This document shows positions 10,311 to 35,830 of a stretch of DNA of 64,000 nt, piece after piece. Numbering within the stretch: the first letter of the stretch is position 1; each line of letters begins with the position of its first letter. The notes under the pieces were generated by a model that did not search any database, was not told the DNA's origin, and saw only the letters and a list, made by a program, of their open reading frames with translations. Origin of the DNA: a virus; the IMG/VR virus record IMGVR_UViG_3300010048_000001, positions 1-64,000 of that record; one strand, 5' to 3'. The translations under genes and the position numbers were made by a program.

Positions 10311-10409
10311 TCCGCGCCGCGCATCTGCCTCGTGGAAACGCGGAGCCCGACCGCCCGTCAGCTCAGGACGGACACCTAAATTATAGCGAGCGCAAGAGTA
10401 TTACGCTAG
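10311..10409 (-). promoter_or_regulatory. late-type promoter plus two-hairpin leader, copy 1
   Basis: CTAGCGTAAT-N14-TATAAT, then hairpin GTCCGTC-CTGAGCT-GACGGGC and stem TCCGCGT...CCACGAGG...GCGCGGA; near-identical organisation at 35733-35830. Confidence 0.75.
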
Positions 10410-10416
10410 GCCTGCG

Positions 10417-11163
10417 TTACCTTGGTGACAATCCGGCCTGCAAGCAGGTTGCGACAACCGTATCGCCAGCCCCCGTACCGCCGGAGTTTAGGATAATACG
10501 CCACGCACTAATGGGCACGTCAGATAGATAACCGGCGGCATTGCCTGTAGCCCCAATGAGGTCCGCCATGGACCCGCCAGAACCATAAGGCGGGAACACG
10601 CCGGTACCCGTAGTCGGCAGAATAGCCGGCGGAATGGGGGCATTGCCGAGGATCTTGCTCCCCATGACGCTCTTGTTGTTGTTCAGATCATCGATCGTGA
10701 CCTGAATCGTCCAGTTGACTGTGCCGGTCACGACGACGTTCCAGACAAATTCTTCCGGAGCGATAAAGGTCCCGAGAAGCTGCCAAGGCGACGGCACAAC
10801 ACCGTTCGTCCCGAGCGTTACGGCAGCCGTAAAGCCGCCGCCCAGCGGCAAGGCCGACGTCACCGTCTTAAAAGATTCGGTTGTCGCTACGGTGCCGCTA
10901 GCACCCGAGGGAACAGCCAGCGTCTGCGAAATGATGCCGCCGTTCGCATTGGTCCCGGTGATGACCATCGTCCGGGCCGAAGCCTCATTCCCGTAGGTCA
11001 GCAAGACCTCACGAGGCACGTCGAGCGTCGCAACGCCGCCAGACACCGTGCTGCCATTCAACGTCAACGCCGTGCCGCTCGTCGGCGTTATGGTCGTAAC
11101 GATATTATTCGCCGAAGAGGCAGCGATGCTGGGACCTAGCTGGACGCGCTGCTGGATGGCCAT
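10417..11163 (-). CDS. putative virion structural protein
   Basis: Thr/Gly/Ala-rich beta protein (MVITGTNANGGIISQTL...FKTVTS) in the post-capsid position; no signal peptide. Confidence 0.6.
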   Translation of the reverse strand: MAIQQRVQLGPSIAASSANNIVTTITPTSGTALTLNGSTVSGGVATLDVPREVLLTYGNEASARTMVITGTNANGGIISQTLAVPSGASGTVATTESFKTVTSALPLGGGFTAAVTLGTNGVVPSPWQLLGTFIAPEEFVWNVVVTGTVNWTIQVTIDDLNNNKSVMGSKILGNAPIPPAILPTTGTGVFPPYGSGGSMADLIGATGNAAGYLSDVPISAWRIILNSGGTGAGDTVVATCLQAGLSPR

Positions 11164-11739
11164 CTAGCGCTTCACATTCTTGGCGAACTGGGCCATGTGC
11201 TGCAGGTGCGAATCGCCTGAATGCAACGCCTTCGAGAGCTTTTTCGCGGGGATCGGTTCTCCTTCCGGAACGTGCAGTGCACGGTGTAGTCGACCTTTGT
11301 GCCCCGGCTTGTCGACGCCCGTTCCTTGGATCCACTTTTCTGGCGAGCCACCGCGCGCCATTCCCGGTGGCCGCATCCCAGCGCCGGGCATAGCGCCAAC
11401 CGGCCCTTGGGGCATCCCTTGACCTTGCATCATCTGAGCCCTCCGAGCCTGCAGCATCTGCATCTGCTGCGGCGACAGTTGCGGAGGCGGAGCCCCACCC
11501 GGCATGCCACCAGGAGCAGCGCCCGGCATTGGCTGCCCCATTGGCATACCCACAGCCCCGCCCGCCTGCCGGCGAGCCGGGCGATCTAGCCGCCGGCGGG
11601 TTTTACCGCCGTCAGCCCGAACGTGCTTCTTGGGCTTGGCAGCCCCATGCTCATATTCCTCGCGCTCATGCTCGAAGCTTTCGCCCTCGAGTTCGGCTTC
11701 ACGGCGAATATGAGCGTCAGAGGGCATCTTCTTTGCCAT
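11164..11739 (-). CDS. low-complexity basic protein with [A/K]xGG motifs and a folded-looking C-terminal domain
   Basis: Likely start MAKKMPS (11739); RADGG, RQAGG, MARGG; Met/Pro/Gln/Gly tract; C-term KWIQG...KGRLHRALHVPEGEPIPAKKL. Confidence 0.65.
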   Translation of the reverse strand: MAKKMPSDAHIRREAELEGESFEHEREEYEHGAAKPKKHVRADGGKTRRRLDRPARRQAGGAVGMPMGQPMPGAAPGGMPGGAPPPQLSPQQMQMLQARRAQMMQGQGMPQGPVGAMPGAGMRPPGMARGGSPEKWIQGTGVDKPGHKGRLHRALHVPEGEPIPAKKLSKALHSGDSHLQHMAQFAKNVKR

Positions 11740-11791
11740 TGGCGCACCTATGAGGACTACGAGGAGACCAGGCGAATCGGAGTGATCCGCC

Positions 11792-12307
11792 TTATTCCTC
11801 GAGCTCGTCATTATCTGCCTTATGCATGCCGGCTTCGCGAACCCGGGCGGCAGTCGTTAGCGGCGTCATGTCGGAGCCCACTCCGCCGCCGCGCTTGCGG
11901 CCGGGGCGATCAAGCCGGTGATGGCCCTTGTGCCCATGGCCCTCGACTTCCTTCTTCGCGCGTCCGCCGCGAGCTAGCGCAATGGCCCCGCCATCAGCGT
12001 GGTGGTGATGCTCGGCATGCTCTGTCCCGTGATGAGATACGTGATGCTTGCCGTGGTGAACCGCGCCGCCGTGCTTGCGCTTCTTGCCCTCGGCCTCTGG
12101 CACGACATTGCTCTTGGCCGTGTAATCAAGCTCCGGATCCTTCTCCGGGAAATCTTTCTCGCCGTGCATGGCGCCGCCGTCTTTGCGCTCCATGTGGCCA
12201 CCACGCTTGTAGTGGTGGTGCTCGACGTGCTGCGACCCATGATGGGAAACGTGATGCTTCCCCTCATGCATTGCGCCAGAATGATGATGACCCCTTGCCA
12301 TCGCCAT
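11792..12307 (-). CDS. His-rich low-complexity protein with six [A/K]xGG motifs
   Basis: Strong RBS AAAGAGGAG; repeat GKHHVSHHG(S/T)xHxEHHH twice; upstream TATAAT at about 12402-12407. Confidence 0.75.
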   Translation of the reverse strand: MAMARGHHHSGAMHEGKHHVSHHGSQHVEHHHYKRGGHMERKDGGAMHGEKDFPEKDPELDYTAKSNVVPEAEGKKRKHGGAVHHGKHHVSHHGTEHAEHHHHADGGAIALARGGRAKKEVEGHGHKGHHRLDRPGRKRGGGVGSDMTPLTTAARVREAGMHKADNDELEE

Positions 12308-12402
12308 CTCCTCTTTAACCTCGGCGATCCGCGCCGACCGGTCCCGCGTTGGTTAGACCGCGGGCGGCCTGGGACCCGTCCCGTAGAGGGGCGAGATCTG
12401 CA

Positions 12403-13599
12403 TTATACATTAAATGCTTCCGCAGTGCCAGACGGCGGGCTCTTCAATATCGCCCGCACATCGTCTTTGGAAACCGTGGCCAGCCATGCCTCGCGATCAA
12501 GAACTCCGTAGGAGATTACTAGCCGCTTTCCATCCGGATGCTCACACATGCCGCAGACATACTCTCCGGCCGAATCGTGCCCGAACTCCCAACCCAATGA
12601 AAAGGTGCTGATCTGCAGTTCCCGATCGAACCAGACAAAGCGCTGTCGATAAGGCGGCTTGCACAAGACCGGGTCGAGATCCCTGGGGCACTCATGAATA
12701 ATTGCCAGGAAGCCGTCATCAAACGGAATAAGCTGGCTGCTGCCCCTCCAATGTCTCGCCGAGACGGGCGGCACACCAATCTCTCCCGGAGCTGGCGAGG
12801 GCCCATATCCACAAACAACAGTAGGATCACAGGAATAGACGAATCTCCCCGATCCATCAGATACAGGCATCCAATTCTTTTGGTGCCGTTTGGGCCCTGG
12901 GGGTTGCTGAAGAACCGTAAAGTTTGTCGCCTTCCCGCCCTCTATCGAGACGACCGTCATTTCGCACAGCCGCTCGTCATTGTGCTGACGGCTCGTAGCC
13001 GATGCACAAAGATTCCCGTCCAGATACCAGAGGCGCAGATCCTCCAACCCGACGACTTCGCGACTGACTATCGGGACATCCGATACATCCAGCTCGCCGA
13101 GGCAGGAATGTTCCAGGGAGGGCTCGACATGAAACAGAAAATTACGGGTGATGGTCGGACCGTGGTTCTTAGTGCCGATGAGGTAGTTGACGCAGCGGAC
13201 ATTCATGATGACCCCATCGGGACCATTCACGATCGATGGGTTCATTGGATAGAACCCGGCTGGCGGCTCAAAGCGAATCGGCAACCACCGTTGTAGCGAA
13301 GGGGCCAAATCGCCGAGCTTCTTCCGATACCGGAATAGATTGCGCCACGTCACCTCGCGGGCCGCCTCTGGGAATTCTCGATCTAGCGTCAGCTCTTCAC
13401 AAAGCCGCGCTCCCAGCGCACGCATGTACGGCCGTTTCGAATGGAATCCCGAAGTGGCGATCTCTGCTTTCACCCGCACGGGATCGCATCCGCCTAACAG
13501 GCCGCGCTGTGCGAAAAGAATCGCGACATCAGGAAGCCCACGCTGCCGGTACTCAGCGGCATGGGCGCATAATTCCGTTGCCTGAAGACGCTCAAGCAT
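12403..13599 (-). CDS. helical N-terminus plus five-bladed beta-propeller of GH130/beta-mannosyltransferase-like type
   Basis: Motifs MNPSIV, GLEDLRL, QKNWMP, WRGSSQL, YGVLDREA. Confidence 0.6.
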   Translation of the reverse strand: MLERLQATELCAHAAEYRQRGLPDVAILFAQRGLLGGCDPVRVKAEIATSGFHSKRPYMRALGARLCEELTLDREFPEAAREVTWRNLFRYRKKLGDLAPSLQRWLPIRFEPPAGFYPMNPSIVNGPDGVIMNVRCVNYLIGTKNHGPTITRNFLFHVEPSLEHSCLGELDVSDVPIVSREVVGLEDLRLWYLDGNLCASATSRQHNDERLCEMTVVSIEGGKATNFTVLQQPPGPKRHQKNWMPVSDGSGRFVYSCDPTVVCGYGPSPAPGEIGVPPVSARHWRGSSQLIPFDDGFLAIIHECPRDLDPVLCKPPYRQRFVWFDRELQISTFSLGWEFGHDSAGEYVCGMCEHPDGKRLVISYGVLDREAWLATVSKDDVRAILKSPPSGTAEAFNV

Positions 13600-14195
13600 C
13601 AGGCGACTTTCTGGTAGAAAGCGATGAACTCAGGATATTCCGCGACCTTGCGCCAACGACCTGCGGCCTCAACCGAATCGGCCCATGGCTTCACCGTCGG
13701 CGTCTCCGGACGCCCGTAATCGTCAAGCCCGATGATCGTCTGGCTAGTGATCAGGCGCTCGATCCCATTCAGCGTCGGCCCGAGGAATTTATCGATATCG
13801 AGGTCAAGCCACAAAAAACTCAGCGGGCGCGTCAGGTACATAGGAGCCGTCTTCCGCGCGTCCCCGCGAATCGGCACGATCGGCAGAAGAGCCGCCCATT
13901 TCCAAAGCTCCGCCTCCGACGTTTTGTCATCACCGTAGTCGCCGGCGCGAGGCCAGCCAGTCGGATGAGTCTCCGTAAATCCCTCAAACGTATCAAAGGC
14001 AAAGACGACCTTGTCCTGCCCCAACGTCTTCACATAACAGGCAAACTTCAGCGACATGGTGCCGCGATAGCAGCCCATCTCCGCTATGTCGCCCGGTACT
14101 GACAATGATTTTTCGAACCAGGGGATGACGACCGAAAGGTTCGATTCGGTCGGTAAGTCTACAATAGCCCGCGGAACAATTTGCTCAATCGACAG
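13599..14195 (-). CDS. TylF/MycF-family O-methyltransferase
   Basis: VPGDIAEMGCYRG, FAFDTFEGF, LSFLWLDLD, IGLDDYG; frame stays open upstream to CTG 14195, which follows GAGG. Confidence 0.8.
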   Translation of the reverse strand: MSIEQIVPRAIVDLPTESNLSVVIPWFEKSLSVPGDIAEMGCYRGTMSLKFACYVKTLGQDKVVFAFDTFEGFTETHPTGWPRAGDYGDDKTSEAELWKWAALLPIVPIRGDARKTAPMYLTRPLSFLWLDLDIDKFLGPTLNGIERLITSQTIIGLDDYGRPETPTVKPWADSVEAAGRWRKVAEYPEFIAFYQKVA

Positions 14196-14204
14196 AACTC
14201 AACC

Positions 14205-14579
14205 TCATGAATGCGTCGACATGACGTCTTCGTGAGTGATTATATACACGTCCTCGTCAACGGCCGTAATATGCATCATCTGGTACTGAGCCGTCGAGGC
14301 CGTAATGCCGTTGGCAATGCCGTTCACCGTTACCCCAGATCCTGTAACGGTAATGGTCCCAGTCCCAGCCTGGTACAGATCGCACGAGAAACCACGCATC
14401 AGTTTGATCGGCAACGTCACCGCAATGGCGCTGCTCGAGGTGAAGCTGATGATCTTGCGATTGTCCCCTACCCCCGTGCCCCCATTGGTATAGGCTAGGC
14501 CGGAGAGGCTCAACGTGTAGGTCGTCGCGTTTACGATAACAAGACGATCGAACGGGCCAGCGACAGCACCAACGGTCAT
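14205..14579 (-). CDS. small virion/fibre-domain protein
   Basis: TTYTL...DNRKII.FTSSSAIAVTLP...GFSC..YQAGTGTITV pattern common in phage structural proteins. Confidence 0.6.
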   Translation of the reverse strand: MTVGAVAGPFDRLVIVNATTYTLSLSGLAYTNGGTGVGDNRKIISFTSSSAIAVTLPIKLMRGFSCDLYQAGTGTITVTGSGVTVNGIANGITASTAQYQMMHITAVDEDVYIITHEDVMSTHS

Positions 14580-15628: not shown

Positions 15629-15633
15629 GGCTC

Positions 15634-15691
15634 GTCTCTCCTTAGTGATAAACTCAGGAGAGACTATACCATCCGAAACCGCAACGGTCAA
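15634..15691 (-). promoter_or_regulatory. sigma70-like promoter and RBS-sequestering hairpin of the endonuclease gene
   Basis: TTGACC-N17-TATAGT (15691-15663); inverted repeat GTCTCTCCT/AGGAGAGAC (15634-15664) covering the SD. Confidence 0.7.
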
Positions 15692-15750
15692 TCCCCGTAT
15701 ATGTTCTGCCATCGCCGATGCCAGTCTAGACTAGCAAGCTACTGGTTTTA

Positions 15751-16665
15751 TTATGATGTTGGGTTCGTTCCAAAGCCGGCTCTAGGGTTATAATAGCTAA
15801 ATGAGTAGCGTTCATAGCCCTTAACTAATAAGTTGTCCGTCGTGAACTCGACCTCCATCGACATCTCAAACGGGATGCGCTCCATGTAGGAGAGCCCCGG
15901 AACGTTGGTGAGCAGGAACCAGGAGAAGCTGGAGGTGAGGAAGTCGTTTACGAAGTACGACTCCTTGAGGCCGCCGGTGGTGCTGCGGATGGCATTGACG
16001 TCGTTGTCGCCAGTGCCGGGACGCAGCTGCGACTCGAGGAGGCGAATGGCGACTGGCTCGAGCTCGGGCGGGATCAGAAGCATCTTCGCCCGGGCATAGA
16101 ACTTCAGGGCAGCCTGGTCGACGAACTGCCGGCGGATCTGGATCATTGCGGAGAGCAATGAGGTCTCGGAGAGATCGGCCGCCGTAGTGAAGGCGTTCGA
16201 GTAGGTGCCGAGATCGATCGGGTGTGCAGTCGAGAACAGCGGTTGCTGGTCACCACCAACGGCCACTTGCTGGACGAACCCGAGATTGAAGACGCTGGCG
16301 CCATAGATTTCCTTCGTCTGATTGAAGGACTCCTGGAGGCCAAGGTTCGACGGATTGAACTGCGTCTTGTAGAGGTTATCGTCGATTGCGGGCCGCGTGA
16401 TGGCGTAGCCGAGAGCGACCTCGAGGTGCGACTGGTTCCAGACGAAGCGCTCGCCGGCACGGTTGGCGAAGGTCGTGGATTGGCCTTCGTTGTTGAGGCG
16501 GGCCAACGGCAGGTAGCGATTTTCCGCGGTGCGCTCGACAGCCTGTTCCGATTTGATGAACTGGAACAGTTTGTCGTACTGCCTCGGGATTTGCTGATAT
16601 TTGCCGGTGATCGCGCGCAGCCCCGGGAAGAGCATGTCGCGGATATTGGAAAGTGCGACGGGCAT
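15751..16665 (-). CDS. major capsid protein
   Basis: 304 aa; LFPGLRAI, LGYAITR.AIDDNLY, GGDQQPLFSTAHP, ADLSETSL, LLIPPEL, GTGDNDVNAI; high GC3 codon bias; head-operon synteny. Confidence 0.85.
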   Translation of the reverse strand: MPVALSNIRDMLFPGLRAITGKYQQIPRQYDKLFQFIKSEQAVERTAENRYLPLARLNNEGQSTTFANRAGERFVWNQSHLEVALGYAITRPAIDDNLYKTQFNPSNLGLQESFNQTKEIYGASVFNLGFVQQVAVGGDQQPLFSTAHPIDLGTYSNAFTTAADLSETSLLSAMIQIRRQFVDQAALKFYARAKMLLIPPELEPVAIRLLESQLRPGTGDNDVNAIRSTTGGLKESYFVNDFLTSSFSWFLLTNVPGLSYMERIPFEMSMEVEFTTDNLLVKGYERYSFSYYNPRAGFGTNPTS

Positions 16666-16678
16666 CTGTCAGTCTCCC

Positions 16679-17314
16679 TTAGACGCCGGTCAGCTGCTTC
16701 TGGAACTGGTTGTTCCAGTTGACCAGAACCAGGTTAAAGGCGGTGGTGTTGTCGAGGCCGTTAGAGCCCGGGGCGCCGGTCCACGGATCCGATGGCAGAG
16801 CCATGATCCGGAACGGCAGCGCGGCGGTGACCGCCGGCGTGGTATGCAGATCGATGTAGGCGCCCGAGAGACCCGTCGAGGTGCTTCCGGTACCGTAGGC
16901 ATATGTGGCGTTCATGCCGACCATCGCCTGCGTCGCCGCACCTCCGGGTGACGTGCTGTACCCGGTCTGCACCCAGAAGGAGACACTCGGGTCATCGATC
17001 ACGAAGGCGGTAACGATCCCGTTAGTGATCGTGTCGCTGCCGGGGAAGTAGGGCATGAAAACCAGCTTCTGCTGGCTCGCACTGATGTACTGGCAGCCCC
17101 AGAAGATGCCACACGGCATAACCGTGCTGGAGATACTTCCTGGCGCCAGGGTATCAATGTACCCACTCGACAGCACCGTCACCGGATCTCCCTTGAAGAT
17201 CTGGTGCGTATTGGAATAGAGAATCTGATAGTTGCCGTTCAGGTTGCCCGACCAGGACGCGCCGTCTGAGCGGCTTCCCGGGTCGAACCCCAGCGGGTTG
17301 AAGGTATTCGCCAT
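16679..17314 (-). CDS. head decoration/cement protein
   Basis: MANTFNPLGFDP, IFKGDPV, GIFWGCQY, AFVIDDP; directly upstream of the capsid gene; high GC3. Confidence 0.7.
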   Translation of the reverse strand: MANTFNPLGFDPGSRSDGASWSGNLNGNYQILYSNTHQIFKGDPVTVLSSGYIDTLAPGSISSTVMPCGIFWGCQYISASQQKLVFMPYFPGSDTITNGIVTAFVIDDPSVSFWVQTGYSTSPGGAATQAMVGMNATYAYGTGSTSTGLSGAYIDLHTTPAVTAALPFRIMALPSDPWTGAPGSNGLDNTTAFNLVLVNWNNQFQKQLTGV

Positions 17315-17505
17315 CGAGTTTCCTCGGTGTCGACCCTTCCCCTATGATGTCGGTCTGGGTTACGGGGTCAGCGGCCCGTCTTCGTTTAGCCGCTTACTTC
17401 TCCGAAAAGAGCGTCTCGTGGCCGCTCACGGAATATGCCGAACACCCCGAGGGTTCGGTATTTGCCACTATATGATGTGTTGAAAGCCCGTCCGCGTCAA
17501 TAGCC

Positions 17506-17721: not shown

Positions 17722-17724
17722 TGT

Positions 17725-18279
17725 CTATGGCTCCGATGTAAGTGATTCTTCAATGGGAGGGCCGGGCGACCACTGCTGTTGAATGCTGGCAACCTTCCGA
17801 ACGCTCGGGTGATCTCGAGTAAACTGACCCTCGGGAGTGCCGTACAGTTTCTCCTCGGTGACCTGAATCGGCTTTAGCGCTTCCTGAATATCCTCCATCT
17901 GCGCTTCTTCGGTTAGGTACTTCGGCCGCTCCATCAGAATACAACCGCCGCGGCGAATCACCGTCTCACCAACGGAGGCCAGTTCGGGATGGCGATCAGC
18001 AGGGACAGCTGACCAATGGTTCTCCCGGAGGCCGATTTGATGTTCACGGTCGGGCTGCGCAAAAACGCTTTCGCGCTTCCATTCATAGCTGCGGCCGGGC
18101 GGGATGATGCTACGGTCGAACTCCAACGGATTGGTGGTTCGCCGGCGGCGAGTAAGCCGTGGCTCGTTAGTCGGCGGCATTGCCTGCCGCGTTGTGGCTT
18201 GCCGCGGCTGGGCAGGCTGGGGCGCGGCCCCGCGTGCCTCGGATCTGTAAGAAACTTCACTCACGTTTGCGTTTCCCAC
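17725..18279 (-). CDS. conserved head-operon protein
   Basis: PPGRSYEWKRESV...W.AVP...HPE...IRRGGCILMERP; alternative GTG start at 18264. Confidence 0.65.
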   Translation of the reverse strand: MGNANVSEVSYRSEARGAAPQPAQPRQATTRQAMPPTNEPRLTRRRRTTNPLEFDRSIIPPGRSYEWKRESVFAQPDREHQIGLRENHWSAVPADRHPELASVGETVIRRGGCILMERPKYLTEEAQMEDIQEALKPIQVTEEKLYGTPEGQFTRDHPSVRKVASIQQQWSPGPPIEESLTSEP

Positions 18280-18338
18280 GACGCGCAGCCTTCGTGGCAG
18301 ACGCGACGGAAACGAAGCCGCCCGGCTCGGGAGCGGCT
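18272..18338 (-). promoter_or_regulatory. two-hairpin leader, copy 3
   Basis: AGCCGCTC-CCGAGCC-GGGCGGCT followed by CGCGTCTGCCACGAAGGCTGCGCG. Confidence 0.6.
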
Positions 18339-18343
18339 ATTCT

Positions 18344-19387
18344 TTACCTTCTGGCATTTACGCCTATTAAGCCCTCGCGCTGCAGGTCACGCTTGTGCCG
18401 GGCATACTCCGTCTCATCGATCCCCTGTGATCGCGCGAAGGCTCTTTCCTCGGCCGTTAAGACAACCCGATCACCACCGCTGAGATTTGTGGTTGCCGAG
18501 GCACTCGGCACGCTGCCGCCGGCGGGAGCCGTCGTCAGTCGCCTATGGGCCTGATCTGCGCGCCGCTGATTGGCGCCGGTATCACGCGGCTCGTCCGGAT
18601 CAGCGTCTCGCCCGCGGCCGTTTGACTGCTCGCGCGGTTGCGAATCGGCTTGCCTACGCTCTGTAAGACCGACTTCGTCGTTGACGAAATCGATGTATTC
18701 CTGACTGCCGATATCGATGCCCTTGACTTGCGAAGCATAATTGGCGGCAGCAGCAACTCGTCTTTGGAACGCCGTATCGGTAAAATACTGCGGATGATCG
18801 CGCAGCCAATCCTGAACGATCGCCGGCTGATTGCGGATGAAAATGTCGCGCGGGTCATCGGGCACCGAAACTGGCTGCGCTGGCTGCTGCTCGCGGGTCT
18901 GTTTGCGCGCCTCGAGCGCTTTCTGTCCAGCTGTCAACTGCGCGATTTCGCCGCCGAGCACCGCCATCTTGGCCTGCACATCGGCCATCTTCCCACCGTC
19001 GCCGTCGGCGTAAGCCGCGGCTTGCTGGCCCTTTAGCGCCTCCATCTCGGCATTGCGCGCATTCAGCGAACTTACGATTTCGCTCAGCTGCGCATCTTCG
19101 GTCGAGCGGCGGCCGGTCTCTGCCTCGACGTTGGCGCGCTGATCGGCCTGCCGTGCCTTTGCCTCTGCAGCATCGGCCCTGGCTCTCTCCTCGGTACGCC
19201 GGCGACGTTCCTCAGCAATTTCCGCATCCCGCTTTCGATCACGCTCCTCGAGCTCGCGCAACGTTGCCCGGAGTCCCTCGATAACATCCTCGGGAGTTTC
19301 GATCGTGATTTCTTCAGGTGGGGGCTGATTGGCACGTACCGACTGGTCAACCGCATCGGAAGGCAGCGCTGCTCGATCGCCTGACAT
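18344..19387 (-). CDS. capsid scaffolding protein
   Basis: Acidic coiled coil; C-term VVLTAEERAFARSQGIDETEYARHK; position between GroES-like and capsid genes. Confidence 0.7.
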   Translation of the reverse strand: MSGDRAALPSDAVDQSVRANQPPPEEITIETPEDVIEGLRATLRELEERDRKRDAEIAEERRRRTEERARADAAEAKARQADQRANVEAETGRRSTEDAQLSEIVSSLNARNAEMEALKGQQAAAYADGDGGKMADVQAKMAVLGGEIAQLTAGQKALEARKQTREQQPAQPVSVPDDPRDIFIRNQPAIVQDWLRDHPQYFTDTAFQRRVAAAANYASQVKGIDIGSQEYIDFVNDEVGLTERRQADSQPREQSNGRGRDADPDEPRDTGANQRRADQAHRRLTTAPAGGSVPSASATTNLSGGDRVVLTAEERAFARSQGIDETEYARHKRDLQREGLIGVNARR

Positions 19388-19390
19388 CGC

Positions 19391-21196: not shown

Positions 21197-21197
21197 G

Positions 21198-21473: not shown

Positions 21474-21506
21474 ATCGGCCTCCTTGTCTAAAGAATAGCA
21501 CGAATC

Positions 21507-21755: not shown

Positions 21756-21756
21756 G

Positions 21757-26853: not shown

Positions 26854-26855
26854 AT

Positions 26856-27224
26856 TTAGCCCAGTATCACGTTGATTTGACCGTCTGAAACCTTGGCTGA
26901 AATGGGTGTGGCGCTATTCACGCCCATGGCAATCAGCTGCCCGGCGATTTGGTTCGTCAAATCGCGACGTTCCCAGCAGAAATAATCACGGCAAGTCTTC
27001 GGACGAAATGCATACACCGAACATCGACCCCGGTCAATAAACGGGCACCTCTCGACGTTCGATTTGATGATCATCTTGCCGTTTTCTTCTTTGACATATC
27101 GTGAGCGAAACGCCCGGCTTGCCAGCCCTACATGCGAGGCAAGCGAACGGATTTCGTGATCCGTCACATCGACGGAGCCGGAGATGGTGCAGCACACGCC
27201 AGGGCACTTGCTGCAATCCATCAT
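26856..27224 (-). CDS. YkgJ/FliB-like CxxCxxxCC zinc/iron-chelating protein
   Basis: CSKCPGVCC...CPF....CSVY..RPKTCRDYFC. Confidence 0.85.
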   Translation of the reverse strand: MMDCSKCPGVCCTISGSVDVTDHEIRSLASHVGLASRAFRSRYVKEENGKMIIKSNVERCPFIDRGRCSVYAFRPKTCRDYFCWERRDLTNQIAGQLIAMGVNSATPISAKVSDGQINVILG

Positions 27225-30200
27225 CAGGTGCTCCCGATGTTCATGTAGAGGCGGAAATTGCTGGCTGTGGTGCTTAATGCCGTGGCGGTGAAAGCTGTCG
27301 GCACGATGCTGGTGGTGCTCGTACTCAGCATGCCCACCGCATCAAAGAAATTACTCCCGGCTGCACCAAACGGACCGACCGCCGCATTAAGATGAGTGTT
27401 TCCGGCGAACGAGCACGACCAAGAAAGAGCACTGGCTCCGGCGCTGCCGGTCGTCCCCTGAATGCCCAGAGCATAGACGCCAGGAGGCAAAGTGCCGGAG
27501 AACGGCAAGCGAATCGCCCGCCATGAGCTGAAGTTGCTCGTCGCGGCGTTCGCCGTCGTCGTATTCGAAGTCACCGACAAGTTCGTTGACAGCGTCCCGG
27601 TTGTGCTCGAGTGCGGATAGGAAAGGCTTAGGCCGTTCGTTTGCGAGCTCCCGGACTGGCTCAGCGTCTGCGATGCACTCCACGTCAAAATTGTCGAAGA
27701 AAGCGACGCATATTGCTCAGCGGCATTCTGCGAATAGAGCGCCACCGACAACATCGATGCCATCGAGGCGCTCGCCGATTGACTCTTGGAGCTAGTAGCC
27801 GAAGTCATCGCAGAGAGGGTGAACGTGCCGAGCAGCTGCATCTGGTCAAATGCCACGGGCCGCTGCAACGTAAACGGCGCCATGAACATCGTCGCCCCGC
27901 TCGGGATCGACGTTGATGCGCTGGCAAGAAGCGGCACCGGCTCAAAATTGGAAATCGGCGTCTCGTAGATCGAGATCGTGCTGGCGTTAGTCGACAGAGA
28001 AATACCGGAGGTACCGATAAGCGACGACGTAGCCGGAACGGCAAAGACCAGGCTGCTGGCGGATATGCCGGCGCTCATAGCACCCGAGGCGCTGACAGAC
28101 AGCGTGCCCCCGATCGCCGCTGAAGTCGTTGTCCCGGCCTGAGTGTTGCCGGCCGCAAACAGCGACAGGCTGGCGGCACCCGGGCTGGGGCCAGAAATTA
28201 CCAGGGCGCCCGCTCCCGCAGCGGTCGTAGAGAACCCGACGCTGATCGCCCCCGCGCCTGAAATCGAGATGCTCGAGAGCGTCTGCGTGGTCGAGCTTGT
28301 GGCGCCGAGCGTATTGCCGATCACGTATTCGTTCTGGACGACGCCCGAGGCGGCCGGCGTGGGCGCCGAGACAATTAGAATGTTATTCGAGCTGTAACCG
28401 ACGGAGACGATGCCCGCGCCTGAGACAGTAACCGAGCGGGCATCGAAGGTCGTATTCGATGACGAGCCGGTCGTATTGCCAGCGGCAAAGCCTTCGATCG
28501 TCTGCACCGACTGGCTCGTGGTCGCGCTGAGGACAAAGGCACTCTGTCCCGCCGCCGTGGTCGAGAGCCCGACACTTATGATCCCAGCGCCCGAAAGGGT
28601 GAGCGAAGCATTCGTTGCGGATGACGTCGCGGCCGTTGTGTTGCCCAACGCGAACATGCTCAGCGTTGCGGCACCAGGCGCAGGACCGGAGATTACCCAG
28701 GCACCGGCCCCAGCGGCAGTCGTTGAGAAGCCAACGCTAATCGCTCCGGCACCGGACATCGAGACACTAGACAGCGTCTGCGTCGTCGAGCTTGTGGCAC
28801 CGGTTGTGTTCCCGATCGCAAACTCGTTTTGCACCACACCGGATGCGGCCGGCGTGGGCGCTGAAACGATCAGAATGTTGTTCGATGAATATCCGACAGA
28901 GACGATCCCCGCCCCAGATACAGTTACGGAACGGGCATCGAAGGTCGTGCTGCTCGAAGAGCCGGTAGTGTTGCCTGCCGCAACACCGCCGATCGTCTGA
29001 ACGCTCTGGCTCGTCGTTGCCGAGATGATCTGGTAGGAGATCGTGCTCGTCGTGCCGGCCGCCGTAGAGGTGCTCGCTGTCGAGAAACCGACCGAGACAA
29101 TCCCGGCCCCGGACACTTCGTTTGTCGAGAGCACCGATGGCGGGAATGGATAGGAAGAAATAGAAGAGGTTTGCCCGGTGGTATTGCCCACCGCATAGGC
29201 GCCGGCCGTCAGTGGCGCCGAAACGAGTGTATAAGTTGTGCTGCTGGTCGTACCAGCTGCAGTCGAAGACGTCGCTGTCGAATACCCGACACTGACAATC
29301 CCCACCCCGGAAATCTGGCGAACACCCAATGGCTGGGCGAACGGATAATCCGAGATGCTCGATGAAACCGTCGTGTTTCCGGTTGCCGATTGGCCGGCAG
29401 AAATCGGGGCCGAAATCACAAAGGCGCTCTGCCCGGCCGCCGTCGTCGACAGGCCGGCGCTGATAAGACCAGCTCCGGACACCGTTATGGAGCCGAGGTT
29501 CGTTCCCGAGGTCGTGGCCGCAGTGGTGTTGCCCGACGCAAAGAGGCTGAGAGAAGCGGCCCCAGGGGACGGAGCCGAAATGATCAGAATATTATTCGAC
29601 GAATAGCCGACACTGGCAGCCCCGGCCCCCGATACGGTAACCGACCTGGCGTCGAACGTAGTATTTGACGAAGAGCCAGTCGTGTTCCCAACCGCGAACC
29701 CCTCGATCGTCTGCACCGATTGATTCGAAGACGCCGAAATCACCAACGCGCCCGCACCAGCCGCGGTAGTCGAGAAACCGACAGAAACGATGCCGGCCCC
29801 ACTGATGGAGACGCTCGACAGAGTCTGCGTCGTCGAGGACGTCGCCGCTGTCGTATTCCCGATGACATATTCGTTCTGGACGACACCACTCGCCGCAGTC
29901 GTGGCGCCGGAGATCACCACAACGCCTTGGCCAGCCGCGGTGGTGGAGTATCCCACCGAAACGCCACCCGCACCGGACAGCGACAAACTGCCAAGCGTCT
30001 GAACGGTCGATGAGGTCGCTCCCGTCGTATTCCCGAGAGCAAACTCACTATTAGCCGTTCCAGAGGCTGCGGTGGTCGCTCCCGAGATGATCAGCACGCC
30101 GGAATTGGCAGCAGTTGCGAAACCGACGCTGACCCCACCGGCCCCTGAAACCGATAAACTTCCAAGCGTGGCTACGGCAGATGAGGACGCTGAGGTCGTA

Positions 30201-33200
30201 TTGCCAAGCGCGCGAATGTTGTCTGCCGTGCCGCTCGCAACCGGCGGAGCGACCGAGAGCATCAAGACACCAGAGTTCGCTGCCGTCGAGAAGCCGGCCG
30301 AAATGCCCCCGGTTGCCGAGACCGAGAGGCTAGCGAGTGTCGCTACCGCAGAGGACGATTGACCGAAAGTATTGCCCTGGGCACGAATACTGTCCGCGGT
30401 CCCGGATGCAGCAGTCGTCGCGCCTGAAATTATGAGCGCGCCAGCGCCGGCCGCGGTAGTCGAGAAACCGACAGAGACGCCGCCAGCGCCAGATACTGAG
30501 ATGCTCGATATCGTCTGCGTCGTCGAAGACGAGACCGTGGTGTTGCCGATCGCGTACTCGCTCTGGACAGTGGCGCCGCCGCCAGCTGCCCCTGAAACGA
30601 TCAGCACGCCCTGCCCCGCGGCCGTGGTCGACAGACCTACCGAAGCACCGCCGGCACCCGAAATCGAAAGTGCCGTCAGCGTCAACACAGACGAGGAAGT
30701 CGCCCCCGTGGTGTTGCCGAGCGCCACCAGGTTTTCGGCGGTCCCAGAAGCTGAGGTCGTAGCGCCGGAAATCACCCAGGCGCCGGCGCCGGCCGCGGTG
30801 GTCGAAAATCCTACGGAAACCCCGCCGGCCCCTGAAATCGACACGCTCGACAATGTCTGGGTCGTCGAGCTCGTCGCAGCCGTAGTGTTGCCGATCGCGT
30901 ATTCGTTCTGAGCGGTTGCCGCGCCCGCAGTATCGATAATCGTAATCGTCGAACCGGCCGTCGATAGCGAGATCCCGGCCCCAGCAACCAATGAAGACGT
31001 CGCTGGCGACGAGACAACGAATGCGCTTTGCCCGACAGCGGTCGTCGAAAGCCCAACGCTGATGGCTCCGGCACCTGACAGAGTAAGCGAGGAATTCGTC
31101 GCCGAGCTGGTTGCCGCCGTCGTGTTGCCCGAAGCAAATAAGCTCAGAGGGCCGCCCCCGCCGCCGCTCCCTGAGATGATGATCGAACTGTTCGATAGAC
31201 CGACGGAGACATTCCCCGCGCCGCTGAATGCCCAGCTGCCCGACTGGATTTCCGAAGTCGTGGTTCCGACCGTCTGGAGGCCTGCCGCATAGACACTGTC
31301 GGCCTCGTACAGCGTAACAGTACTGCCCACCTGAGATACGGCAATCCCGGATGCGGCCGTAACGACGGAACTCGCCGGCGCCGAGATGATTAAGGCACTT
31401 TGTCCGGCCGCAGTCGTCGAAAGCCCGACGCTTACCGCCCCGGCACCAGATACAGTAAGCGAGCCGGCATTTGTAGCTGAGCTGGTTGCCGCCGTCGTGT
31501 TGCCCGAAGCAAACACGCTCAGCGTCGCAGCTCCGGGCGATGGCCCCGAAACGATCACCACCCCCTGCCCCGCCGCGGTGGTTGACAGACCCACCGATAC
31601 GGCGCCGGCGCCAGAGACGGAGAGCGCCGTTAGTGTCAGGACCGAAGAGGAAGTGGCTCCCGTGGTGTTCCCAAGAGCCACTAGGTTCTCGGCGGTACCG
31701 GAAGCTGCGGTCGTAGCCCCCGAGATGATCAGCACGCCGTGACCGGCGGCTGTGGTGGAATACCCGACGGAAGCACCACCCGCCCCGGAAACGGACAGGC
31801 TTCCGAGGGTGGCCACCGTTGACGACGTGGCGCCCGTCGTATTCCCAAGCGCGAATTCAGAATTCGCCGTACCGGAGGCGGCCGGCGTGGGCGCTGAAAC
31901 GATGAGGACAGAGGATCCGGCAGCAGTGGTCGAAACCCCGACTGAGACAATCCCCCCACCGGAAATCGACAACGCGCTGACAGCCGATTCGGATGTCGTC
32001 GTGCCGGTCGTATTGCCGATCGCAAAGAAACTCGATGTTCCGGCCGCGGCGCTTCCCGTAGCACCGGAAATTATGATGCTGCTGTTGGAAATCCCGACCG
32101 AGACCCCGCCAGCACCACTAAATGCCCAACTGCCGGACTCGATCGCAGAGGTGGTCGAATTCGTCGTATTGCCAACGGCATAGACACTGGCATCCTCGTA
32201 GAGCGTCACGCTCCCCGCAGCCGTTGAGACCGCAACACCAGAAGCTGCCGTCACGACCGAAGATGCCGGCGCGGAGACGATCACAACCCCGGCGCCAGCC
32301 GCCGTTGTCGACATGCCGACGCTGACAGCGCCGGCGCCCGAGAGCGACCAGTTCGTCAGCGTCAATATGGATGACGACGTAGCCCCAGTCGTGTTCCCGA
32401 GCGCGAAGACATTCTCAGACGTAGCGCTAGCGCCGCCCCCAGCTGCAGCGGAAATGACGACGCTGCCAAGGCTGTACCCGACGGACGCCGCCCCCGCGCC
32501 AAAGAAACTCAACGATCCGCCGGTCTGGGCGGTCGACGATGACTGAGCCGTTGTGTTGCCGTCCGCATAGAGATTCTGTGTCGCCTCTATGGAAATGGTG
32601 CTGCCGGCGCTCGCGAGTGAAATGCCACTGGCCCCGACTAGAGACGAGACGTCAGGCGCAGAGACAATCAGCGTCGTGTTGCTGAACCCGAGGCTTATGG
32701 CGCCGGTACCCGATAGGGTAAGGGAATTCGATGTCGACTGTGAGCTTGTGGTCCCCGTCGTGTTGCCAACGGCGAAAAACGCCGACGAGGTCCCAGCGTG
32801 CGGAGAGGCAGAGATTGTGATCGAGTTCGACGAAGCGCTCAGCGTAATGTTGTCGCCGCCGACCAGATTCATATCGGCGCTCGGCCCCGAGCTCGTCCCG
32901 GCAGTATTGCCGCTAATGGTGTAGGCCAGGTCTTCGGCTAGGACTGTGATCCAGACTTGGGCCAGAGCCGAGGCATTTATCGCGGCATTGCCGTTGGAGG
33001 AGAAAAGCGGACCGCGGGTAATGCTCCATAGGCCAGCAGAGAGCGTTGCGGTCCCGCGCCCTACCTCGAATGCAATCTGATTCCCGGACGAGTCGAAATC
33101 CGCCAGGGTATAGGAAATAACGTTCCCGCTCAGAACACCGGCGGCGCCGAATGTCTGATAACCCGGGACCGCGGCAGAAGCCGTTATAACGCCGGTGCCC

Positions 33201-33247
33201 GGGGCTGCAGACACCAGCATCCGGGCCATATCGAATAATCCGGCCAT
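27224..33247 (-). CDS. giant Ser/Thr/Ala/Gly repeat fibre protein (2007 aa)
   Basis: Phage structural N-terminal domain (GTGVIT...AVPGYQTF...FEVGRGT...SSNGNAAIN); about 27 repeats of ~50-55 aa, A.GNTT...L(S/T)(V/I)SGAG.(V/I)SVG.ST; directly downstream of portal. Confidence 0.85.
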   Translation of the reverse strand: MAGLFDMARMLVSAAPGTGVITASAAVPGYQTFGAAGVLSGNVISYTLADFDSSGNQIAFEVGRGTATLSAGLWSITRGPLFSSNGNAAINASALAQVWITVLAEDLAYTISGNTAGTSSGPSADMNLVGGDNITLSASSNSITISASPHAGTSSAFFAVGNTTGTTSSQSTSNSLTLSGTGAISLGFSNTTLIVSAPDVSSLVGASGISLASAGSTISIEATQNLYADGNTTAQSSSTAQTGGSLSFFGAGAASVGYSLGSVVISAAAGGGASATSENVFALGNTTGATSSSILTLTNWSLSGAGAVSVGMSTTAAGAGVVIVSAPASSVVTAASGVAVSTAAGSVTLYEDASVYAVGNTTNSTTSAIESGSWAFSGAGGVSVGISNSSIIISGATGSAAAGTSSFFAIGNTTGTTTSESAVSALSISGGGIVSVGVSTTAAGSSVLIVSAPTPAASGTANSEFALGNTTGATSSTVATLGSLSVSGAGGASVGYSTTAAGHGVLIISGATTAASGTAENLVALGNTTGATSSSVLTLTALSVSGAGAVSVGLSTTAAGQGVVIVSGPSPGAATLSVFASGNTTAATSSATNAGSLTVSGAGAVSVGLSTTAAGQSALIISAPASSVVTAASGIAVSQVGSTVTLYEADSVYAAGLQTVGTTTSEIQSGSWAFSGAGNVSVGLSNSSIIISGSGGGGGPLSLFASGNTTAATSSATNSSLTLSGAGAISVGLSTTAVGQSAFVVSSPATSSLVAGAGISLSTAGSTITIIDTAGAATAQNEYAIGNTTAATSSTTQTLSSVSISGAGGVSVGFSTTAAGAGAWVISGATTSASGTAENLVALGNTTGATSSSVLTLTALSISGAGGASVGLSTTAAGQGVLIVSGAAGGGATVQSEYAIGNTTVSSSTTQTISSISVSGAGGVSVGFSTTAAGAGALIISGATTAASGTADSIRAQGNTFGQSSSAVATLASLSVSATGGISAGFSTAANSGVLMLSVAPPVASGTADNIRALGNTTSASSSAVATLGSLSVSGAGGVSVGFATAANSGVLIISGATTAASGTANSEFALGNTTGATSSTVQTLGSLSLSGAGGVSVGYSTTAAGQGVVVISGATTAASGVVQNEYVIGNTTAATSSTTQTLSSVSISGAGIVSVGFSTTAAGAGALVISASSNQSVQTIEGFAVGNTTGSSSNTTFDARSVTVSGAGAASVGYSSNNILIISAPSPGAASLSLFASGNTTAATTSGTNLGSITVSGAGLISAGLSTTAAGQSAFVISAPISAGQSATGNTTVSSSISDYPFAQPLGVRQISGVGIVSVGYSTATSSTAAGTTSSTTYTLVSAPLTAGAYAVGNTTGQTSSISSYPFPPSVLSTNEVSGAGIVSVGFSTASTSTAAGTTSTISYQIISATTSQSVQTIGGVAAGNTTGSSSSTTFDARSVTVSGAGIVSVGYSSNNILIVSAPTPAASGVVQNEFAIGNTTGATSSTTQTLSSVSMSGAGAISVGFSTTAAGAGAWVISGPAPGAATLSMFALGNTTAATSSATNASLTLSGAGIISVGLSTTAAGQSAFVLSATTSQSVQTIEGFAAGNTTGSSSNTTFDARSVTVSGAGIVSVGYSSNNILIVSAPTPAASGVVQNEYVIGNTLGATSSTTQTLSSISISGAGAISVGFSTTAAGAGALVISGPSPGAASLSLFAAGNTQAGTTTSAAIGGTLSVSASGAMSAGISASSLVFAVPATSSLIGTSGISLSTNASTISIYETPISNFEPVPLLASASTSIPSGATMFMAPFTLQRPVAFDQMQLLGTFTLSAMTSATSSKSQSASASMASMLSVALYSQNAAEQYASLSSTILTWSASQTLSQSGSSQTNGLSLSYPHSSTTGTLSTNLSVTSNTTTANAATSNFSSWRAIRLPFSGTLPPGVYALGIQGTTGSAGASALSWSCSFAGNTHLNAAVGPFGAAGSNFFDAVGMLSTSTTSIVPTAFTATALSTTASNFRLYMNIGST

Positions 33248-33250
33248 TGA

Positions 33251-35722
33251 CTACCCCTCCGGAGGTTGTTGCTCCGGCGGCGCCCCCAGGGGCTCCGGTG
33301 GCTTGGCGGCCTGCTCAACGTGCGGCCGGATAAAGGTGTCTCGTTGATGCTGCAGGTCCTGCGCCTGCACCTTCTCACGTTCCGTCTCGAGCCGAGTGTT
33401 GGCCACGCGCTCACGGCTGGCCCGATCGGCAGCCCGATCCGCGCTTTCCGTGACGGCTATCTGGCCCTGTACCTGGCGGTCGCGATCCTGGGCCGCAGTA
33501 TCCATCGCGGCCTCTTTCATCCGCGCGTCGTGCTCGGCCATCGTCTGCTGCAGCTTCATTCCCATCTCTTGCAGCCGCGCCTCATGCTCCTGCTGCGCCT
33601 GCTGAGCCTTCTGCTGGATCGCCGCCATTCGCGCCGGATCAGGCGCGCCGTCCTGCTTTCCGCCGGCGGCTTGGGCCTGAGCTGCCTGCGCCGCAGCGTA
33701 CTGTTCTTCTGTGACGATTAGGGTATCGGGGTCCGAGATACCGAGCACGATCGCGACTTGTCGAATCAGGGTGCGCAGATTGAAGAGAATCGGCTGTTGG
33801 ATCGCGAGCTGCACCAGCGCGTACCATTTCATCAGCCGGTGCATGTGCGAGGGTGTGTTGGGATCGGCTGCAGGAACAATCTCGCAGTCTTCAAGCGCCC
33901 GCAGGAAGACTGCCTCTTCCCAGTCGTAGCCTTTCTTGTTCCAGCGCCAGAAGCTCTCCGGATTGGCCTTGTAGCGCTCCTTCAGAAGCTCGAGCTCTTC
34001 GGCCTGGCTCGCATGCAATCCGATATGTGCTGCAGCCAGAACCTTGGTCGCCTGTTCGATGAGTGCCAGCGTTGTCCCTACTGGCGCATCCTGATGTCCT
34101 TCCCCGACGGGCAACTCTGCCGTGCCGGCGACACGATCCATCCGTTGCTCGATATGCTGGATCAGCGCGACAAAGCCCGCTGTCACATCCTTATAGGGGA
34201 GGAATTCGATGACGTTTTTCAGCGGCACCGTAGGTGGCAAGCCCTTAACGGGCAGGCTGCCGCCTGGCGGGATGCGGTTCTGATTTGTCCAGTTGCGGAT
34301 CGCCGCTTCGTTATGGATGGTGCCGGGGAAATTAGCGTACATCCCGGCATCAAGGGCCTCGCGCCAGGCTGCCGTCAGGGCCTGATCCCCATTGCCGATA
34401 AGGTGCAGCAGCCCAAGATCATAAAACCCCATTGCGGGGACAAAGCCGTACTTCACGAATACTCGGCGCGCCCGGAAGGTATCGTCGTCCTGTTCCCAGT
34501 TCCGACGCAGCTCGAGCATCTCGCGCGAGTCCTTGTCGATCGTCACCTTCCAGGGCAATTCGAGACCAGTGACCCGATCTTCTCCCGAACGAGGATCCTT
34601 GCGTCTGTGCTCATAGCCAGCGACGTCGAGTTCGACATAGGACTCGTACATCGTGCGGTCCTGGTCCTCGATGCGCTGCGGCCTCGCCTCTAGGCCTTGT
34701 GCACGGGCAACAGCCTCTTCCTGCGCATTCGGCTCCGACTGGGGATCATGCAGATCGACGTCGCGGTAGACGCCGAGGATCTGCATCCGCTTGACGAGCG
34801 ACTGCCGCATCTTGATGCGATGCGTCAGACGGCCGGCGTCGCCAATCTCCGACGCGGCATTGGACACGATCACATCGGAAGCATCGACAAACCGCGAAAC
34901 CGGGCGGTCGCGAATCGGGCAATCGTAGACCTTAACGAAGCCGCAGCCGCCGAAGGCGACCCAGAAGAGCATCTTGACCTTATCGGGCCGGTAGCCCCGA
35001 TCACCCACCGTTAGGTTGTGATTGAAGCCCCGCTCAAGGGCCTCGGCGATCTCCTCGCGCGAAGCCTGTTCCACGGCCTGCGCATCTTCTGCAGGACCAC
35101 CAAGACCAAGTATTTGTTCCTCGAGGGCTGGGCCACCGTTATGCCCGATGCCCGGAGGCGGAGCGACGCCGGCCGGCTTAACAGGCCGATCATCCCGAAC
35201 CTTGACGGGGCCGCTCGGGGGATAGAGCTCGCCGGCCGCGTTTGCCTGGAAGCGTGTAATGGCCTCGAGCAATAAGGGATGCCGGATCGTCGACATTCCC
35301 TCGAATGGCCCGGTGGAATTGCCGACATCGCCCTTCGGCTTTTCGAGCGACGTGCCGAGCATCTTGATGCCTTCGGCGCGCATCTCCAGCCATTCCTGGC
35401 GAGATTCGTCATCAGCGGCGACGCCGCGTAATACCTCTTCCACGATCCGGTTGCGGACATCGTCGTCGATCTTGTCCGCTAGGTTCGCGAACCAGTCGTC
35501 ATCGTCCTCATCAGCTTCCTCAGGCGGAGGCCGGAGGTTGATGACCACGCCGCCGTCCGGCGTATCGATGGAAACGGTGCCGTCGGGATTGATGCGCGGC
35601 TCACCCATGCCGGGCTCGTCGCTGACGACGACGATCTTTTCCGCGTCATCCTCACCGAGGAGGTCGGGTTCCGGAGGATCGGCGAGGCGTGTAAAGCCGC
35701 GAGCGAGACGCCCTTCGGACAT
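33251..35722 (-). CDS. portal protein
   Basis: 823 aa; DDESRQEW, HPLLLEAITRFQANAAGELYPPSGPVK, GCGFVKVY, GFYDLGLLHLIG, APVGTTLALIEQ; Gln-rich coiled-coil C-terminus; downstream of terL. Confidence 0.85.
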   Translation of the reverse strand: MSEGRLARGFTRLADPPEPDLLGEDDAEKIVVVSDEPGMGEPRINPDGTVSIDTPDGGVVINLRPPPEEADEDDDDWFANLADKIDDDVRNRIVEEVLRGVAADDESRQEWLEMRAEGIKMLGTSLEKPKGDVGNSTGPFEGMSTIRHPLLLEAITRFQANAAGELYPPSGPVKVRDDRPVKPAGVAPPPGIGHNGGPALEEQILGLGGPAEDAQAVEQASREEIAEALERGFNHNLTVGDRGYRPDKVKMLFWVAFGGCGFVKVYDCPIRDRPVSRFVDASDVIVSNAASEIGDAGRLTHRIKMRQSLVKRMQILGVYRDVDLHDPQSEPNAQEEAVARAQGLEARPQRIEDQDRTMYESYVELDVAGYEHRRKDPRSGEDRVTGLELPWKVTIDKDSREMLELRRNWEQDDDTFRARRVFVKYGFVPAMGFYDLGLLHLIGNGDQALTAAWREALDAGMYANFPGTIHNEAAIRNWTNQNRIPPGGSLPVKGLPPTVPLKNVIEFLPYKDVTAGFVALIQHIEQRMDRVAGTAELPVGEGHQDAPVGTTLALIEQATKVLAAAHIGLHASQAEELELLKERYKANPESFWRWNKKGYDWEEAVFLRALEDCEIVPAADPNTPSHMHRLMKWYALVQLAIQQPILFNLRTLIRQVAIVLGISDPDTLIVTEEQYAAAQAAQAQAAGGKQDGAPDPARMAAIQQKAQQAQQEHEARLQEMGMKLQQTMAEHDARMKEAAMDTAAQDRDRQVQGQIAVTESADRAADRASRERVANTRLETEREKVQAQDLQHQRDTFIRPHVEQAAKPPEPLGAPPEQQPPEG

Positions 35723-35732
35723 TCAAACTTAT

Positions 35733-35830
35733 TCCGCGCCGCGAATCGCCTCGTGGAGACGCGGAACAGGGCGGCCCGTCAGCTCAGGACAAGCACCTCA
35801 ATCATACCGGGAACAATCAAATTACGCTAG
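35733..35830 (-). promoter_or_regulatory. late-type promoter plus two-hairpin leader, copy 2
   Basis: CTAGCGTAAT-N14-TATGAT, GCTTGTC-CTGAGCT-GACGGGC, TCCGCGT...CCACGAGG...GCGCGGA, ending 10 nt before the portal ATG. Confidence 0.75.

Follow-up and report, generated by a model that had tools for sequence, protein, structure and literature searches.

A repeated promoter-like and hairpin-bearing leader ahead of three late gene modules in an uncultured soil phage

Introduction

What kind of element would a phage repeat, in one orientation and always running up to a start codon, ahead of separate blocks of virion genes? The question is raised by the first 64 kb (64,000 nucleotides, hereafter the window) of the 105,196-bp IMG/VR virus record IMGVR_UViG_3300010048_000001, which derives from an uncultured soil phage. 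An earlier, sequence-only reading of this window described a late promoter followed by a covarying two-hairpin RNA leader, found in two copies and accompanied by a third leader and a partial fourth copy. It suggested that these constitute an uncharacterised cis-RNA coordinating morphogenesis genes, for instance by put/nut-like antitermination or as a translational operator.

To answer the question, we combined repeat and BLAST searches, covariance models, comparison of gene order with related phages and searches of viral, metagenome-derived and bacterial sequence collections. The repeat is real and looks functional, and it resembles the promoter/stem-loop cassettes already known from phages; no relatives show it to be a new kind of RNA. 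The explanation we favour, with about as much doubt as confidence, is a lineage-specific cassette of promoter, 5'-hairpin and ribosome-binding site (RBS) that heads three late modules and probably moved with them or joined them.

Results

A direct repeat in register with start codons

The first two copies, at 10311-10409 (copy 1) and 35733-35830 (copy 2), are direct repeats, both on the minus strand, just as they had been located from the letters. A repeat search aligns 83 nucleotides (nt) of them at 77% identity, whereas BLAST within the genome aligns 98 nt at 79% (E 3e-18) and finds no further full copy in the 105-kb genome. Each copy spans 98-99 nt and fills the space ahead of a start codon: copy 1 makes up the entire 92-nt gap between the stop of the gene at 10417-11163 (TAA, 10417-10419) and the gene of a signal-peptide-like repeat protein, and copy 2 ends at the ATG (35722) of the portal gene, which lies immediately downstream.

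The identity between copies 1 and 2 is distributed in blocks. An upstream box (10/10), the loop and 3' arm of the first hairpin (14/14), the 5' side of the second helix (17/18) and a tandem CGCGG-CGCGGA element (11/11) are nearly or fully identical, whereas the spacers are near random (6/14 and 4/9 identical). A run-length permutation test of this clustering gives a p of only about 0.03, for which reason selection on the conserved blocks is likely but not proven. The 17-nt block formed by the loop and 3' arm occurs exactly twice in the genome, against 0.22 expected occurrences.

To evaluate the third leader without circularity, we left it out of a covariance model trained on copies 1 and 2 and scanned the complete genome with this model. 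The best remaining match is a full-length one at 18263-18340 (16.5 bits, E about 0.0024), the next reaching 8.4 bits. Since the leave-one-out model ranks this site first, copy 3 can be called a true paralogue without the promoter, that is, the transcribed part alone placed between two genes; it coincides with the leader that had been noticed near 18272-18338. Its helix-2 half by itself scores 15 against 16 for the best unrelated match, which is background level, and the call therefore rests on both halves combined. Hairpin 1 of copy 3 starts 5 nt past the TAA stop (18344-18346) of a gene encoding a protein of 347 amino acids (aa) and is followed by a U-rich run. The GTG at 18264, with which the downstream gene begins, is backed by N-terminal homology with genes in the related genomes L110, G001 and G003.

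In the model alignment all three copies finish at the start codon, in register, and both this register and the orientation are the same in every copy. The genes around them are on the minus strand. The notion of a repeated cis-element ahead of morphogenesis blocks thus holds: copy 2 precedes the portal gene, copy 3 a head-region gene and copy 1 a fibre/adhesin block.

Two further candidates were rejected. The motif proposed as a partial fourth copy is present at 17409-17427, and neither covariance model finds it at E up to 10. Similarly, the intergenic stretch 12308-12402 shares common GC-rich words with the repeat and is missed by the models.

Pairing is conserved in hairpin 1 and uninformative in helix 2

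The conservation of pairing is concentrated in hairpin 1, which is present in all three copies with a stem of 7-8 bp. On the minus strand its seven pairs leave no stem cell unpaired across the copies (21/21), with the three different stems and the CYGAGCY loop, five of whose seven letters are constant, as originally described. Two of the pairs are altered on both sides (flipped in copy 3) and three on one side. Four cells are G-U pairs, all of them on the coding strand, where the plus strand would have A-C mismatches; the statement that full pairing is achieved on the minus strand only, via G-U, is therefore correct, and such sense-strand-only pairs (about 1 in 16 by chance) argue for RNA. The genome contains four hairpins with a C-N-GAGC-N loop and a stem of 6 bp or more, against a shuffle mean of 1.04; three of them are on the minus strand, and these coincide with the intergenic copies 1, 2 and 3. 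Hairpin 1 is the only well-supported structural element of the leader, and the pattern of its changes supports its behaving as an RNA-level structure.

Covariation had been claimed for two helices. The compensatory changes bear this out for hairpin 1; helix 2 consists of 4-5 pairs with invariant CGCG/CGCG pairing, shows no covariation and permits many alternative folds. As its pairs are invariant, they are uninformative for or against a structure. Hairpins of the CCGCG...CGCGG type are found in 17 places in this GC-rich genome. Likewise, the CCACGA hexamer that had been singled out within helix 2 has 37 sites on the minus strand, of which 9 are intergenic against 8.4 expected, and a genome-wide intergenic enrichment was accordingly rejected. 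As for intrinsic termination, copies 1 and 2 lack a U-tract, and the U-rich tail of copy 3 is borderline and missed by a terminator scan.

Promoter-like elements and the ribosome-binding region

The 10-nt upstream box occurs exactly twice in the genome, each time 14 nt ahead of TATAAT or TATGAT, in agreement with the shared box-N14-TAT(A/G)AT arrangement first reported; no other pair of box and hexamer is found in the genome, even with two mismatches allowed in the box. In both copies hairpin 1 begins 6-7 nt past the -10 hexamer, and the predicted first transcribed base is therefore the first base of the stem. A sigma-70 scan calls neither copy, the -35 region being occupied by the non-consensus box. 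From this layout we infer the promoter activity of copies 1 and 2 and their transcription start. Genome searches gave no matches to sigma-70 regions 2 and 4, Mor, Com or Q; a search for a T7-type RNA polymerase was also without a match in the genome, and, the control having been silent too, this blank is uninformative.

At the other end of the unit, the ribosome sites next to all three copies are of a weak GGA type, whereas the neighbouring genes carry GAGG or GGAG. In copies 1 and 2 the second repeat of the tandem element overlaps this weak site, and the upstream CCGCG has two possible partners, the proximal repeat and the repeat that covers part of the Shine-Dalgarno (SD) sequence. By prediction, however, the SD and start codon are of ordinary accessibility, the three genes ranking 9, 25 and 17 among 41 control genes, and SD sequestration was rejected as a thermodynamic feature. 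For the gene after copy 1, an alternative in-frame ATG is present at 10324.

The copies lie at breaks of synteny

Comparison of gene order with related phages places copies at points where it breaks. The homologues of two genes, first the one at 10417-11163 and then the one at 103093-104406 (genome coordinates), stand next to each other in G001 and G003, with 9 nt and 1 nt between them. In the soil phage the same two genes are separated by about 11 kb, from 10409 through the record origin to 104468. As the flanking genes are adjacent in G001 and G003, copy 1 marks precisely the 5' border of an approximately 11-kb block absent there. This block (window 1-10409 plus genome 104468-105196) contains genes for signal-peptide-bearing fibre- or adhesin-like proteins; its first protein looks signal-peptide-bearing, and one of its genes crosses the record ends (1-1740 joined to 104468-105145). 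Two proteins of the block were tested and have no counterpart in G001 or G003.

The genes flanking copy 3 are neighbours in L110, with a single base between stop and start, and enclose a different small open reading frame (ORF) in G001 and G003, so that copy 3 is missing at the same gene junction in all three. A 3.3-kb contig of a related phage, from the soil run that probably yielded the record, matches the soil phage on both sides of 17941-18938 but has 937 differing letters in place of the 996 that include copy 3, which is further evidence that this junction is variable. At the portal gene, the sequence directly upstream of the leader differs even among contigs with a near-identical leader. 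The position of copies at synteny breakpoints, overlooked in the earlier reading, points to a regulatory/recombination cassette resembling the PeSLs, the promoter/stem-loop units of T4-type phages discussed below.

The cassette appears to be confined to one lineage

Rfam yields no match at the gathering score and chance-level ones at E up to 10. Exact patterns for the box with the -10 and for hairpin 1 retrieve from IMG/VR just unrelated AT-rich or coding matches, and a gapped pattern of hairpin 1 and helix 2 gives at least 119 matches, none with more than three stem pairs among the matches listed. A 21-base pattern covering helix 2 and the distal repeat finds 0 matches among viral contigs; its 37 matches in bacteria all fall in high-GC genomes and are at chance level by the model. 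In cultured phages the sole match is a chance 40-nt stretch in a Gordonia phage gene. The covariance model, suggested at the outset as a route to homologues, found none: in five related near-complete genomes nothing falls below E 0.2.

We also approached the question from the portal gene. Portal-based locus searches recovered two closer relatives in IMG/VR and JGI, and a profile search 80 loci; in other sources the closest portal homologues are P0002 (72% identity) and P0004 (65%). The portal leaders of the 80 loci are unalignable with copy 2, the best model match (11.5 bits) lying at the expected place in L003. In relatives whose portal is at least 60% identical, the portal gene comes with a leader of about 80-100 nt as well as a -10-like hexamer, and most of the folded leaders form hairpins. 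The portal leader of the L028 group has no second copy within its genome. Peptide patterns revealed no relatives of the gene upstream of copy 1. In the soil-run contigs there are no variants within copy 1 or copy 3; the run, a soil DNA metagenome, is the single sequencing run containing the phage and probably its source. Thus, no homologue of the cassette is found in the viral, metagenome-derived and bacterial collections searched, and it would seem to be lineage-specific.

Discussion

Comparison with known phage cassettes and RNA leaders

The PeSLs of T4-type phages are repeated units of about 100 bp that contain a promoter, a stem-loop, which in some lies past the -10, and an SD with the start codon (PMC2839356). 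They are found at the junctions of indels and bring about the exchange of modules, G-T pairs have been reported in their stems too, and their stem-loops act as terminators (PMC2839356; PMC4122927). They are numerous and combine consensus sigma-70 early promoters with AT-rich upstream tracts in hyperplastic early-gene regions (PMC2839356; PMC4122927). The soil-phage cassette shares with them an intergenic unit of about 100 bp that ends in an SD and start codon, a stable stem-loop within the unit (hairpin 1, 7-8 bp) and, for copies 1 and 3, the position at insertion, deletion or replacement junctions. It differs in having three copies, a conserved loop, no U-tract in copies 1 and 2 and no consensus sigma-70 promoter (the -10 is good and the box non-consensus), in standing ahead of late virion genes, and in belonging to an unrelated phage group. 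Recombination at this cassette, like its role in RNA stabilisation, is something we infer.

Under the cassette explanation, the full unit of copies 1 and 2 would comprise the -35-region box, the -10, a hairpin at the predicted first transcribed base, a GC-rich helix and a weak RBS by the start codon. Host RNA polymerase would start at these two copies, probably aided by a factor reading the box, and the portal, head-assembly and fibre/adhesin blocks would each open with one and the same structured leader. Its hairpin, at the 5' end or between cistrons, would most likely shield the mRNA from 5'-end-dependent decay or mark a processing boundary, and the conserved loop may also serve as a common handle for a factor. 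The cassette probably travelled with the modules that it heads or, like PeSL cassettes, served as a recombination linker. In placing a hairpin at the predicted 5' end of an mRNA it is like the 5'-terminal stabiliser stem-loops, such as that at the very 5' end of the Escherichia coli ompA leader; it differs from them in its loop, since stabilisers need no conserved one.

Several observations weigh against this explanation. The copies number only three and, as set out above, PeSLs are numerous, early and of sigma-70 consensus. The promoter activity of copies 1 and 2 is unproven because the -35 region matches no sigma-70 consensus and neither copy has an extended -10. Hairpins near the predicted start are found at 3 of the 5 putative late promoters against a background of 0.13, only a mild enrichment, and self-comparison of G001 and G003 reveals no repeated cassettes in them. 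With no homologues elsewhere, the covariation rests on three paralogues; the covariation score of the whole structure was reached by 58 of 500 shuffles (three sequences give little power), and the folding energies are no better than those of shuffles (z = 0.06, -0.9 and -1.4). Finally, conservation of the loop is unneeded in a mere stabilising hairpin and hints at something more specific.

Alternative explanations

One form that this more specific function could take is an undescribed phage cis-RNA, in which hairpin 1 and its adjacent blocks would dock a factor, either a translational regulator or an antiterminator, that synchronises the portal, head-assembly and fibre modules; we regard this as rather unlikely. 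A similarly doubtful variant is that hairpin 1 is an operator for a phage RNA-binding protein repressing or activating translation of the three genes, in the manner of the coat-protein operators and of Mu Com/mom, where a protein-binding hairpin for translational activation lies just upstream of a structured ribosome-binding region. A loop that is conserved while its stem covaries is the usual signature of a protein-recognised hairpin, and the complete identity of loop and 3' arm between copies 1 and 2, the weak ribosome sites that set the three genes apart from their neighbours and the alternative pairing over the SD that the tandem element permits are all in keeping with it. However, the ordinary accessibility of the SD and start codon, with no unusual sequestration of the ribosome site predicted, speaks against such an operator, as do the missing covariation of helix 2 and the small number of sites (three); the genome search returned no Com homologue or Com-type zinc ribbon and no candidate binding protein.

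Processive antitermination, in which the nascent RNA with its two hairpins, by itself or together with a small N-like protein, would modify RNA polymerase for read-through of a long operon, is less probable again, to the point of being very unlikely. The late genes form a one-strand block of more than 35 kb, and a promoterless copy 3 could re-load polymerases within it. The layout, moreover, is like that of HK022 put, a cis-RNA of about 70 nt with two stem-loops, of which a genome has more than one similar copy, one of them at the 5' end of a transcript; put is nearly all paired, with two long bulged stems and a triplex, and binds the zinc-binding domain of the RNA polymerase beta' subunit (PMC9378689). 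The cassette resembles putL and putR in length and position, in occurring more than once and in having copies predicted to begin at the 5' end of the transcript, but it has a short first stem (7-8 bp) and an ill-defined second one for which covariation offers no support, and it has no sequence or Rfam similarity to put. Each of its copies, furthermore, is tied to a start codon, a link that antitermination does not require, and few terminator-like sites lie downstream on the minus strand. A lambda-type nut site consists of boxA followed by the boxB hairpin, with a 5-bp stem and a GNRA-like pentaloop bound by N. Like nut, the cassette has a small hairpin with a conserved loop beside a conserved single-stranded block, near operon starts and in several copies; it differs in its 7-bp stem and 7-nt loop and in having the conserved block 3' of the hairpin. 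Nothing like boxA could be recognised, and the genome search returned no Q-type factor; no N-like protein was identified, such a protein not being reliably searchable. Neither a protein-bound operator nor a put/nut-like antiterminator is supported by these comparisons.

The remaining explanation dispenses with RNA: the repeat could be a DNA-level operator just past the start site, or a selfish repeat or recombination scar that spread in the genome. Its confinement to one genome, its place at insertion junctions, the conservation of the 3' arm and loop as sequence, beyond structure, and the weak significance of the block clustering would all be compatible with this. Yet the four wobble pairs fit the sense strand only, the half-sites are unconserved in copy 3, whose stem is flipped at two pairs, and the start-codon register and orientation are identical in all copies. 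Since the wobble pairs are specific to one strand and the stem of copy 3 is flipped, we consider this decidedly improbable, if a shade less so than antitermination.

If the explanation of a mobile late-module cassette is true, modular promoter/stem-loop/RBS units extend beyond the early regions of T4-type phages and also head late virion modules in unrelated soil phages of about 100 kb. It would further tie gene regulation to module exchange, with a cassette at the edge of an approximately 11-kb host-recognition block, and the conserved loop could lead to a new RNA-protein pair. Its confinement to one uncultured genome restricts the broader importance of the cassette at present.

Coordinates of the cassette and of its surroundings

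Table 1. Features of the three copies, the rejected fourth candidate and three late genes (window coordinates; promoter elements and transcription starts are predictions)
Feature	Coordinates	Strand	Remarks
Copy 1 upstream box (CTAGCGTAAT)	10400..10409	-	centred near -31 of predicted promoter; 10/10 match to copy 2
Copy 1 -10-like hexamer TATAAT	10380..10385	-	predicted transcription start G 10373
Copy 1 hairpin 1	10353..10373	-	7-bp stem, 7-nt loop CUGAGCU 10360-10366; one G-U; all pairs kept
Copy 1 helix 2 (CCGCG...CGCGG)	10317..10343	-	encloses TCCACGAGGC at 10327-10336
Copy 1 distal CGCGGA (weak SD) and likely start ATG 10303-10301	10301..10316	-	signal-peptide-like repeat protein
Copy 2 upstream box	35821..35830	-	contains TAG stop of possible 96-aa Cys-rich ORF
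Copy 2 -10-like hexamer TATGAT	35801..35806	-	predicted transcription start G 35794
Copy 2 hairpin 1	35774..35794	-	loop 35781-35787; two G-U pairs
Copy 2 helix 2	35739..35764	-	TCCACGAGGC at 35748-35757
Copy 2 distal CGCGGAA and portal start ATG 35722-35720	35720..35738	-	
Copy 3 hairpin 1	18316..18338	-	loop CCGAGCC 18324-18330; two pairs flipped vs copies 1/2
Copy 3 helix 2 (CGCGU...GCGCG)	18282..18305	-	encloses GCCACGAAG at 18290-18298
Copy 3 weak SD region and start GTG 18264-18262	18262..18281	-	180-aa head-region protein
Proposed copy 4 (rejected)	17409..17427	-	5-bp hairpin, 9-nt loop, then UUUU; leader of decoration/capsid genes
Large terminase	37664-39556		Terminase_6C
Portal	33251-35722	-	phrog_1216 + 2004 homologues
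Major capsid protein	15751-16665		

Other features of the genome

The record carries a 123-bp terminal repeat. HTVC023P-type pelagiphages and Roseobacter phages have capsid proteins with 35-39% identity to the major capsid protein of the soil phage, and this comparison found no close cultured relative. Against G001 and G003 the same protein reaches 86-88% identity, whereas the portal protein, whose N-terminus MSE is common to relatives, reaches merely about 62%; this gap indicates strong mosaicism inside the head module. Between the portal gene and the head genes, a 2007-aa protein (27224-33247, minus strand) consists of many diverged repeats with spacings that are multiples of about 171 nt and has no PHROG match; the relative L003/L110 has just about 2.7 kb in this place. 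Copy 2 is immediately preceded by a possible Cys-rich ORF of 96 aa (35827-36117, minus strand), which matches no Pfam family and could be a small zinc-binding regulator, or spurious.

Outside the window, a 3874-aa protein (genome 77572-89196, minus strand) was considered as a marker of an N4-like phage with hairpin promoters; it was dropped, its PHROG matches being to methyltransferase-like, DarB-like and minor-head pieces and not to an N4-type virion RNA polymerase. Two more promoter-like sites lie within the late region, both on the minus strand. The one at 17472-17500 (TTGACG-N17-CATCAT) is followed by two hairpins, the second of which, at the site of the rejected fourth copy, has its UUUU tail about 95 nt ahead of the decoration/capsid genes and may be an attenuator. 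The other, at 12395-12410, is a perfect extended -10 (TGTATAAT) that overlaps the stop codon of the gene at 12403-13599. After it come a GC-rich leader of 95 nt and a strong ribosome site (GAGGAG), and this -10 probably belongs to another late-region promoter.

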